A DNA stretch of 32,000 nt from Promethearchaeota archaeon. Lineage in GTDB: Archaea; Asgardarchaeota; Hermodarchaeia; Hermodarchaeales; Hermodarchaeaceae. Of the stretch, positions 3,001 through 27,476 are shown in pieces. The notes beneath the pieces are model-generated. The model was not told the DNA's origin. It saw nothing but the letters and a program-made list of their open reading frames with translations, and ran no database searches. Location: the NCBI GenBank assembly GCA_048938295.1, contig JBHLMI010000018.1:1-32000 (forward strand), read 5' to 3'. Position 1 is the stretch's first letter. Each line of letters begins with the position of its first letter. A program made the translations under genes and the position numbers.

Positions 3001-3276
3001 ATGAGTTTAGTTGAAGTTGGCCGAGTTTGCGTGAAAATGCGTGGTCGTGAAGCCGGCAAGAAATGTGTTGTAGTTGAACGCGTAGATAAGAACTTCGTCC
3101 TCGTCACCGGACCACCAGAAGTAACTGGTGTCCGTCGGCGTCGCTCCAATGTTGATCACCTGACTCCGACGAAGAATAGGGTCGACATCAAGGCTGGCGC
3201 AGAGGATGCCGCTGTTGTGAAAGCTATCACGAGTGCGAAGCTCACACCCTTTATGAAAGCAGAAGGGGATGAATAA
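3001..3276 (+). CDS. rpl14e: 50S ribosomal protein L14e
   Basis: EVGRVCVKMRGREAGKKCVVV and TGVRRRRSNVDHL; SD GGAGG upstream. Confidence 0.96.
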   Translation: MSLVEVGRVCVKMRGREAGKKCVVVERVDKNFVLVTGPPEVTGVRRRRSNVDHLTPTKNRVDIKAGAEDAAVVKAITSAKLTPFMKAEGDE

Positions 3277-3298: not shown

Positions 3299-3314
3299 AA
3301 GGAGGACTTCGAAT

Positions 3315-4368
3315 CTGACAAAGTCGCAACTCCCTGCGGATAAGAAACGAAACCTAATCACCCGTGCGGAGGACACCACGAATCCCGCCTATGGTCGTAT
3401 TCCCCAGGAGCGAACCATTTCGGAACTGCTTCGGGATGGTATCATCAATCTGGATAGCTTGCTGAAGGGCGCTGAGCTCCTTTCCAAACCCAGAAAAACC
3501 TCCTGGTCCAACCAGCCATGAAGTGGTTTCGTGGGTTAAACGCATTTTAGGGTTGAATCGCGCAGGGCACTCAGGCACATTGGACCCCCAAGTTACAGGT
3601 GTACTACCTGTCATGCTAGGAAATGCGACAAAAATCGCGAATGCCCTCTTGACATCAGGCAAAGAATACATCTGTATTATGCGATTACACCAACAAGAAA
3701 AACCCCAAAAGATACGCGAAGTCGCTAGTGAATTCGTTGGAACCATTTATCAGCGCCCGCCAGTCCGCTCTTCGGTGAAACGGAGAGTGCGAACACGAGA
3801 AATCTACTACCTTGAGGTTCTCGAAATCGAGGATCAAAACGTCCTCTTCCGTGTAGGATGTCAAGCAGGGACGTATATCCGAAAATTAGTCTTTGATCTC
3901 GGGGAGGTCCTCGGAGGAGGTGCCCACATGGCTGAACTCCGCCGCACTCGTACTGGCCCTTTCAGAGAGGACGCTACTTTAGCCTCGCTCTATGATGTGA
4001 TGGATGCCTTTCATTTCTGGAACGAAGAGAAGGATGAACGGCTTCTCCGCCAATATGTGCAACCGTTAGAAAATGGTGTTGAACATCTTCCTCAGATTAT
4101 CATTCGCGATACTGCGGTTGATGCGATTTGTCACGGAGCTAACCTTGCGGTGGCTGGTGTCTTACAACTCCATACGGATATTCAACCGGGTGACCTGGTA
4201 GCCATTATGACCTTAAAGGGAGAGCTGGTAGCGCTTGCGGTTGCGCAGCAAGAGAGTTCAATGATTCTTGAGGCTACCTCAGGAATAGTAGCTGATACTA
4301 AACGGGTCGTTATACAGCAAGGAACATATCCTTCGACTTGGCAACGAAAATCCGCTAAGAAATCGTAG
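3315..4368 (+). CDS. cbf5: H/ACA RNA-guided pseudouridine synthase Cbf5; join(3315..3455,3496..4368), CTG start, 337 aa after splicing
   Basis: Exon 1 (frame 3) gives ...LPADKKRNLITRAEDTTNPAYGRIPQERTISELLRDGIINLD. Exon 2 (frame 1) gives KPPGPTSHEVVSWVKRILG...GHSGTLDPQVTGVLP, IYQRPPVRSSVKR, GTYIRKL, ELRRTRTGPF and the PUA domain. Confidence 0.93.
3456..3495 (+). other. Putative 40-nt BHB-type intron in cbf5 mRNA
   Basis: CTGG(3450-53) pairs with CCAG(3490-93); the 3-nt bulges are AT^A and AA^A. Cutting after the second bulge base joins GAT to AAA CCT (D-K-P) and restores the frame. The insert itself folds into a hairpin. Confidence 0.88.
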
Positions 4369-4397: not shown

Positions 4398-4513
4398 TGG
4401 CGCCGCGGACGAGATTCGAACTCGTGCGACCCGAGGGTCACAGGCTGTTTGGTAATCACCCACTATGAAGTAAAATTCCAGGCCTGCGCCGTAATCCACT
4501 TGGCTACCGCGGC
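4398..4513 (-). tRNA. tRNA-Ser(GGA) with 29-nt intron at 37/38 and encoded CCA
   Basis: Acceptor stem GCCGCGG/CCGCGGC, G73 and CCA; anticodon stem CAGGC/GCCTG with loop CT GGA A^A; long variable arm GACC-CTCG-GGTC; T-loop TTCGAAT; 87 nt when mature. Confidence 0.96.
4447..4475 (-). other. tRNA-Ser intron (relaxed BHB)
   Basis: Sequence TTTTACTTCATAGTGGGTGATTACCAAAC between A37 and A38; central helix CUGG/CCAA carries one C.A mismatch. Confidence 0.88.
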
Positions 4514-25979: not shown

Positions 25980-27476
25980 TTGACCCGTGACTTGGAACGT
26001 CTTTTAGAAACCGCAGATTCGGCGGCAAGCCGTATCAACGACTGGATTGAAGCCAATGAACCAATTTTTGTGACTTCTCACCTAGATGCAGATGGCCTAT
26101 CTGCTGCAGGCATTATCGGTTCCACGTTAACTCGCCGAAACACTCCTTTCCAATTACGAATCGCCCGTCAACTCGATGATGTCTACTTATCAGAAATTTC
26201 CGGGAAGGGCTGTAACCACTACATCTTCTGTGACCTCGGGAGTGGACAGTTACCACAAATTACAAAGGTAGTAGGCGATGCGGAGATTATCATATTAGAT
26301 CATCATCCTCCCGGATCGATGAAGGTTCCTTCTAATATCCGCCAAGTGAATCCGCATGAGTGTGGATTTGATGCCACCTACGAAATCTCCGGTGCAGGAG
26401 TTGCCTATCTCGTCTCCCGCCACCTCGGCGGCTCAAATGAAGATCTAGCGGCATTAGCGGTGGTAGGCGCTTTAGGTGATGTTCAAGATCGTGGAAAGCA
26501 ACACGACTTTGTCGGATTAAACAAAGAAATCATCGTTGAAGATGCCATCGCAGCTGGCGTCATCGATCGATCCATTGATCTGCGAATCTTTGGACGAGAA
26601 ACCCGACCAATCCATATCGCCTTACAATACACAAGTGACCCTTACATACCAGGGATTAGCAACGATGCCGAAGGGGCTTTGAATTTTTTAGCTGATCTCG
26701 ACATTGATCTCCGTGAAGGTGATGAGTGGCGTTCAATCGCCTCCCTCTCCAAAGACGAAAAGCGGAAACTCAACTCATCGCTTGTCACCTATATGCTCAA
26801 ACAGAATATTCCACCACGCGAAGCCCAATCACTGATTGGCGTAGTATTCACACTCCTTCAGGAAGAGAAGGGGAGCTATCTTCGTGACGCTCGCATGTTT
26901 TCCACTCTGCTCAATTCCACAGGACGCTCCAATCAAGGCAGCATTGGCGTTGCCGTGTGCATGGGTGATCGAGGTGCCCTTCTTCGAAAGGCTGAAACTA
27001 TCCTCAAAGAATATCGGGAACAACTCGCCTTGGGCCTTCAATGGTTAACTGATGATCCTACAGCGATTAAGAAACTGAAACTCATTCAAACCTTTCATGC
27101 TGAAGGTCGTGTTCCTGACACCATCGTGGGCTCAATTGCTGGTATGGCATTGAACGCACGGCTGATCGATTGGACAAAACCAATTATTGCCTTTGTGTAT
27201 TCTCGAGAAGGACATGTCAAGGTCTCGGGGCGCACAACACGACAAATCGTAGAGGCTGGAGCAGACCTCGGCGAAGCCATGTCACAAGCCGCTGAAGAAA
27301 TCGGTAGCGGAGCGGTCGGTGGTGGACACAACATTGCTGCAGGCGCAACGATTCCGCGAGGCCAAGAAGAGCGATTCTTGGAGATAATTGAACGCATTCT
27401 CCGGAAACAAATGGGGCGAATGAAAGAGGTGACTCCTGACTCAGAGGAGAGTGCGAATGAGGAAACAATTAAATAG
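25980..27476 (+). CDS. RecJ/Cdc45-like DHH family nuclease (GAN-like), TTG start
   Basis: SHLDADGLSA, DLGSG, ILDHH, GALGD, FSTLLNSTGR, KVSGR and GGGHNIAAGA. Confidence 0.9.
   Translation: MTRDLERLLETADSAASRINDWIEANEPIFVTSHLDADGLSAAGIIGSTLTRRNTPFQLRIARQLDDVYLSEISGKGCNHYIFCDLGSGQLPQITKVVGDAEIIILDHHPPGSMKVPSNIRQVNPHECGFDATYEISGAGVAYLVSRHLGGSNEDLAALAVVGALGDVQDRGKQHDFVGLNKEIIVEDAIAAGVIDRSIDLRIFGRETRPIHIALQYTSDPYIPGISNDAEGALNFLADLDIDLREGDEWRSIASLSKDEKRKLNSSLVTYMLKQNIPPREAQSLIGVVFTLLQEEKGSYLRDARMFSTLLNSTGRSNQGSIGVAVCMGDRGALLRKAETILKEYREQLALGLQWLTDDPTAIKKLKLIQTFHAEGRVPDTIVGSIAGMALNARLIDWTKPIIAFVYSREGHVKVSGRTTRQIVEAGADLGEAMSQAAEEIGSGAVGGGHNIAAGATIPRGQEERFLEIIERILRKQMGRMKEVTPDSEESANEETIK

Follow-up and report, generated by a model that had tools for sequence, protein, structure and literature searches.

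How can a complete Cbf5 protein be produced from a cbf5 gene whose coding sequence lies in two different reading frames? This question is raised by the first 32,000 nucleotides (nt) of contig JBHLMI010000018.1 (forward strand; hereafter the window), which belongs to a Promethearchaeota archaeon of the Asgard family Hermodarchaeaceae (assembly GCA_048938295.1). Our analysis indicates, with a probability that we put at roughly 0.87, that positions 3456–3495 of the window are an archaeal endonuclease-type intron, of the bulge-helix-bulge (BHB) kind, in the cbf5 pre-mRNA of this Asgard archaeon. Cbf5, a pseudouridine synthase that modifies RNA, is an essential protein, and it very probably depends here on the tRNA-splicing enzymes.

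A cbf5 gene divided between two frames

The two coding segments are the following.

3315–3455, plus strand: cbf5 exon 1, 47 codons, putative CTG start, ending ...GIINLD (translation; Pfam DKCLD, E 1.3e-9; alignment with 2ey4_A)
3496–4368, plus strand: cbf5 exon 2, 290 codons and a stop codon, catalytic Asp codon at 3583–3585 (Pfam; alignment with 2ey4_A from residue 53)

The N-terminal part of the protein (...LPADKKRN...GIINLD) is encoded in frame 3 from position 3315, its last base being 3455. The remainder (KPPGPTSHEV...) is encoded in frame 1 from position 3496 to the stop codon at 4366–4368. The insert between the two frames covers 3456–3495 and is 40 nt long, as the initial annotation had described. 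Without splicing, frame 3 ends at a TGA at 3519–3521, 68 codons from 3315, and frame 1 is closed upstream by a TGA at 3463–3465; both stops, already pointed out in that annotation, are present in the sequence. The Pfam domain DKCLD is found in exon 1, and the domains TruB_N, TruB_C_2 and PUA in exon 2.

Exon 1 aligns with residues 9–52 of the solved Pyrococcus furiosus Cbf5 (2ey4_A), its last residue being D52, and exon 2 aligns with the same protein from residue 53 (K53). Since the exons abut at residues 52/53, excising exactly 3456–3495 restores Cbf5 with no residue gained or lost, and the spliced reading would give a Cbf5 peptide spanning NLDKPPGPTSHEV. The GTLDP motif is uninterrupted, with the catalytic Asp codon GAC at 3583–3585. 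The distance of about 30 codons proposed between the insert and this motif was measured as 29 codons (88 nt); in INLD^KPPG the insert separates the Asp codon from the Lys codon (^ marks the junction). This cbf5 gene is the sole copy in a genome that is 91.6% complete.

The bulge-helix-bulge motif and its conservation

The ends of the insert and the neighbouring exon bases form the following elements.

3450–3453, plus strand: central helix H, 5′ strand CUGG (exon 1), pairs with 3490–3493
3454–3456, plus strand: 5′ bulge A-U^A, predicted cut after U3455 (cleavage rule from PMC2738675)
3456–3495, plus strand: putative 40-nt intron (frame analysis; homologous insert of 40–43 nt in 17 other distinct sequences)
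3457–3461, plus strand: helix h′, 5′ strand GCUUG, pairs with 3485–3489
3464–3484, plus strand: inner hairpin GAAGGG/CCUUUC with a variable loop (folding and covariation)
3485–3489, plus strand: helix h′, 3′ strand CAAAC (covariation)
3490–3493, plus strand: central helix H, 3′ strand CCAG (intron) (covariation)
3494–3496, plus strand: 3′ bulge A-A^A, predicted cut after A3495 (GAAAA invariant in 16 sequences)

The central helix consists of 4 base pairs (bp), C3450-G3493, U3451-A3492, G3452-C3491 and G3453-C3490. Helix h′, opened by the pair G3457-C3489, has 5 bp with one C.A mismatch in this genome, and the inner hairpin, in which GAAGGG (3464–3469) pairs with CCUUUC (3479–3484), caps the intron. 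The CUGG/CCAG helix, the 3-nt bulges, the G3457-C3489 pair and the inner hairpin thus stand as initially annotated, but the designation as a full BHB does not: the outer exon helix h is a single pair here, U3449-A3497, and this pair holds in only 11 of 16 sequences. The motif fits the relaxed HBh′ class and not the canonical hBHBh′. A longer-range outer helix between GGU (3438–3440) and ACC (3498–3500), considered by inspection only, was rejected, its wobble positions varying without compensation.

The archaeal splicing endonuclease EndA cleaves between the second and third residues of each bulge (PMC2738675). Applied to this motif, the rule places the cuts after U3455 and A3495 and yields an in-frame GAU^AAA, the same in all aligned relatives. 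The predicted cuts are therefore exactly the junction that the Cbf5 protein requires, and the agreement between structure and protein claimed at the outset is borne out. The occurrence of such a motif at the register fixed by the protein is rare by chance (84 of 200,000 shuffles; 35 of 31,800 window positions).

A search of 40 relatives found an insert at the same site in all 14 same-genus genomes holding cbf5 (13 and this one). Four further distinct versions came from metagenome contigs, giving a total of 18 distinct sequences with inserts of 40, 41, 42 or 43 nt; all six 42-nt versions, which would keep the reading frame, contain an in-frame stop codon. No insert was present at this site in the sister genus (4 genomes) or in about 150 other archaeal cbf5 loci that were fetched. 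The insert is also present, and no joined form was seen, in Logan contigs from four public DNA runs, three of which are not marked as possible sources.

Base pairs were counted on 16 sequences aligned to a covariance model, counts that are slightly biased towards structure; a raw MAFFT alignment had mis-registered three rows in the inner hairpin, and the covariance-model realignment was used instead. All cells of the central helix (100%) are paired, two of its pairs switching to G-U wobble. Helix h′ is paired in 93.8% of cells, and three of its five pairs change on both sides (one of them, for example, appears as C-G, U-A and U-G). Four pairs of the inner hairpin also show changes on both sides. 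Overall, 88% of cells are paired, compared with at most 59% when the partners are slid, and the observed pairing scores were reached by only 1–2 of 500 shuffles. The pairing first seen in one genome is thus kept in its relatives, with compensatory changes in h′ and in the inner hairpin. Length changes are confined to the inner hairpin, its loop and the linker just 5′ of the hairpin. Differences in the flanking exons are nearly all at third codon positions, and every sequence translates across the junction as I/V-N-L-D^K-P-P-G. Three bases of the central helix come from a CTG codon, which is present in 18/18 intron-bearing sequences versus 19/77 intron-less junctions. Taken together, what the relatives show (conserved and covarying positions, inserts of varying length and in-frame stops) rules out an assembly error and supports a substrate of EndA.

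Several points weigh on the other side. The fold energy of the insert is ordinary compared with shuffles (z −0.1 to −0.7); with scores this unremarkable, fold stability plays no part in our case for an intron. Of 16 relatives, 5 lack the outer helix h, which leaves the 3′ cut site without a canonical BHB closure. The sequences come from one family, so that the covariation counts reflect few independent events, and these counts were made on an alignment guided by the model structure. Kinship and the fitted alignment make the statistics overstate independence; nevertheless, the pattern is that expected for an EndA substrate. Finally, cleavage, ligation, circularisation and any regulatory role of the intron are predictions from DNA.

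Splicing enzymes and competing explanations

Two EndA paralogues are encoded in this genome (contigs C1, 9137–9697, and C19, 2886–3476). The first, an alpha-type protein of 186 amino acids (aa), keeps the Tyr/His/Lys triad and can be aligned over its full length with the catalytic alpha subunit of Aeropyrum pernix EndA (best PDB match 3p1z_B, E 2e-45); the alignment includes the loop linked to broad specificity. The second (196 aa) has lost the His and weakly matches structural subunits. From their number and residues, we infer that the two paralogues form an (alpha-beta)2 heterotetramer, a type of EndA reported to cut non-canonical introns (PMC5829648). RtcB is encoded as well.

In this genome, which is 91.6% complete, ARAGORN called only 21 tRNAs, of which 12 contain introns. 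These few calls agree with reports that tRNA genes are heavily interrupted in some Asgard lineages (PMC11291895; bioRxiv 10.64898/2026.10.13.758758), and interruptions probably keep many further tRNA genes from being recognised. One tRNA gene, tRNA-Ser(GGA) with a 29-nt intron, is located directly downstream of cbf5 (4398–4513, minus strand).

In the mechanism that we propose, the 4-bp central helix would arise in the transcript by pairing of CUGG, at the end of exon 1, with CCAG, the final stretch of paired intron bases. Each strand would carry a 3-nt bulge, and the 5-bp h′ would close the 5′ bulge, the outer helix being nearly absent, as in a relaxed HBh′ motif. A two-subunit (alpha-beta)2 EndA would cut after U3455 and A3495, the second base of each bulge. 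RtcB would then join the exons to give ...CUG GAU^AAA CCU... and would probably circularise the excised intron. Translation from the CUG at 3315 would produce a Cbf5 of 337 aa.

The putative start is accompanied by one upstream element.

3299–3305, plus strand: Shine-Dalgarno-like AAGGAGG, from the sequence, 9 nt before the putative cbf5 start; GAGGAGG at the same spacing in congeners

From the preceding in-frame stop to the intron, the cbf5 gene contains no ATG, GTG or TTG. In the alignment column of the start, CTG is found in this genome and in 6 congeners, ATG in 1 congener, and GTG in 4 other congeners and 3 sister-genus genomes; GAGGAGG or a close variant lies 9 nt upstream of the start within the genus. 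Positions 3315–3317 thus look like a conserved CUG initiation codon. Upstream in the window, reading of the open reading frames together with Pfam gives the gene order cmk (2369–2947), rpl14e (3001–3276) and cbf5, a usual run of genes in Archaea.

Could the insert be removed from the RNA by an agent other than EndA and RtcB, its BHB-like shape being incidental? The missing outer helix speaks in favour of this possibility, which we regard as improbable, since conservation and covariation fall on exactly what EndA requires, namely h′, both 3-nt bulges and the 4-bp helix, whereas the rest varies. Moreover, a self-splicing intron would have to be much longer than 40 nt, the EndA rule gives the exact junction, and nothing points to another enzyme.

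The gene might also be decaying or made in two pieces, exon 1 and a shortened exon 2 starting at GTG 3523 being produced separately or not at all. An open reading frame from this GTG does exist. However, the nine codons upstream of it (3496–3522) are conserved in 18 sequences, with mostly synonymous changes, both exons are intact throughout the genus, the structure of the insert covaries, and no other cbf5 copy is found in the genome. These observations make a decaying or two-piece gene quite improbable.

A further possibility is that the RNA stays unspliced and that the ribosome crosses the insert by translational recoding, either by a programmed frameshift or by bypass. A +1 shift would likewise take frame 3 to frame 1 across a 40-nt insert, but the same device could hardly serve the relatives: inserts of 40 and 43 nt need one shift, those of 41 nt need another, and those of 42 nt need none and yet carry a stop. 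We found no matching take-off and landing codons, and read-through would insert about 13 variable residues in the invariant LDKPxG motif. Recoding is therefore very improbable. That the insert is an assembly or sequencing artefact has a negligible probability, no supporting point having been found, as 18 distinct versions occur in metagenome-assembled genomes and contigs from different studies, and as it also occurs in the contigs of the four public runs mentioned above.

Relation to known introns and history of the insertion

An EndA-type intron at this place has to be compared with the one already known in crenarchaeal cbf5, described in Desulfurococcales and Sulfolobales (Watanabe 2002; Yoshinari 2006; Yokobori 2009; PMC2738675). 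In Crenarchaeota the intron interrupts the catalytic Asp codon itself (PMC2738675), in agreement with the initial annotation. Both introns interrupt the same host gene and are short (16–44 bp in Crenarchaeota, 40–43 nt here). They share a relaxed BHB motif, cleavage between the second and third bulge residues (predicted here), a hetero-oligomeric host EndA (likewise predicted here) and a patchy distribution suggesting gain and loss. They differ in position, the present intron being located 88 nt upstream in motif I (INLD^KPPG), where it falls in phase 0 just after the Asp codon and before the Lys codon, and in host, an Asgard archaeon. Splicing of the crenarchaeal intron was shown by cDNA, whereas here it is deduced from the DNA sequence. 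By position the intron is not a member of the crenarchaeal family, though its mechanism would be the same.

The motif architecture and presumed enzymes are also those of HBh′-type archaeal tRNA introns, which are associated with (alpha-beta)2 or epsilon2 EndA (Marck and Grosjean 2003; PMC5829648). In contrast to these, the substrate would be the coding region of an mRNA, and half of the motif must also encode protein. Another BHB element in an mRNA is the intron of Haloferax volcanii HVO_1309 (PMC7714728), which is processed by EndA, as is predicted for cbf5 here. This intron is located in the 5′ untranslated leader instead of the reading frame, and the host EndA is homodimeric. In reviews published up to 2023, the mRNA substrates named are limited to cbf5 and the Haloferax HVO_1309 leader (PMC10485636, PMC7714728), and our literature searches found no published report of such introns in Asgard archaea or Hermodarchaeota. 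What appears to be new is a second, independent insertion site in cbf5, beyond the published crenarchaeal one.

The different site indicates an acquisition separate from that of the crenarchaeal intron; together with the Asgard host, it supports the independent gain in another archaeal lineage that had been proposed. The intron arose in or before the common ancestor of the genus and predates the radiation of the genus. In a Cbf5 tree, two intron-bearing metagenome contigs group with the intron-less sister genus (support 96/94); on this placement the family would have gained the intron at its base, and the sister genus would later have lost it precisely. The tree thus hints at such a loss; a single intron-bearing clade was not rejected by the approximately unbiased test (p 0.117). 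The two contigs, Ga0187774_10019955 and Ga0153915_10051675, have the most diverged h′, in which a U-A pair is replaced by C-G. No second copy of the intron and its flanks was found in the whole genome by blastn-short, and there is thus no sign of a dispersed mobile element.

Other interrupted genes were encountered in these archaea. In five genomes of the same phylum (G024, G034, G029, G039 and G037), cbf5 is interrupted at the classical site, inside the catalytic Asp codon, as judged from a GTL-E...N-P reading. The four inserts that were read at this site (G024, G034, G029 and G039) show matching 4-bp helices and 3-nt bulges. Asgard archaea would accordingly carry cbf5 introns at two sites. 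In two congeners (G010:C9:49700-52900 and G006:C30:47100-50300), cbf5 contains, besides the 42-nt BHB intron, an intein (about 530 aa) after ...GTYIRKL; the intein of G010 has the Pfam domains Intein_splicing and LAGLIDADG_3. In these congeners a single gene thus has an RNA-level and a protein-level interruption. In the genome studied here, dnaG (contig C35, about 27,161–27,271, minus strand) has a 28-nt insert with a change of frame between ...GQTEGL and IGEDLDLRELQ.

The intron described here indicates that coding sequence can acquire EndA-type introns on more than one occasion, in this case in a host belonging to the archaea that are closest to eukaryotes. Gene callers will truncate or split the essential cbf5 gene in these genomes. 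The two cbf5 sites form a clean natural pair for asking why this gene has been hit repeatedly. One speculative answer, which we consider unlikely at present, is that cbf5 is selectively and repeatedly targeted. Introns would have been fixed independently at two sites, one in each of the two most conserved motifs of the catalytic core (LDKPxG here, GTLDP elsewhere), with both sites represented within Asgard archaea. Dependence on EndA and RtcB would then couple RNA modification to splicing capacity, and the weak CUG start could act as a second brake in this clade. The inserts in cbf5 and dnaG suggest that introns in protein genes may be a wider feature of Asgard lineages rich in tRNA introns.
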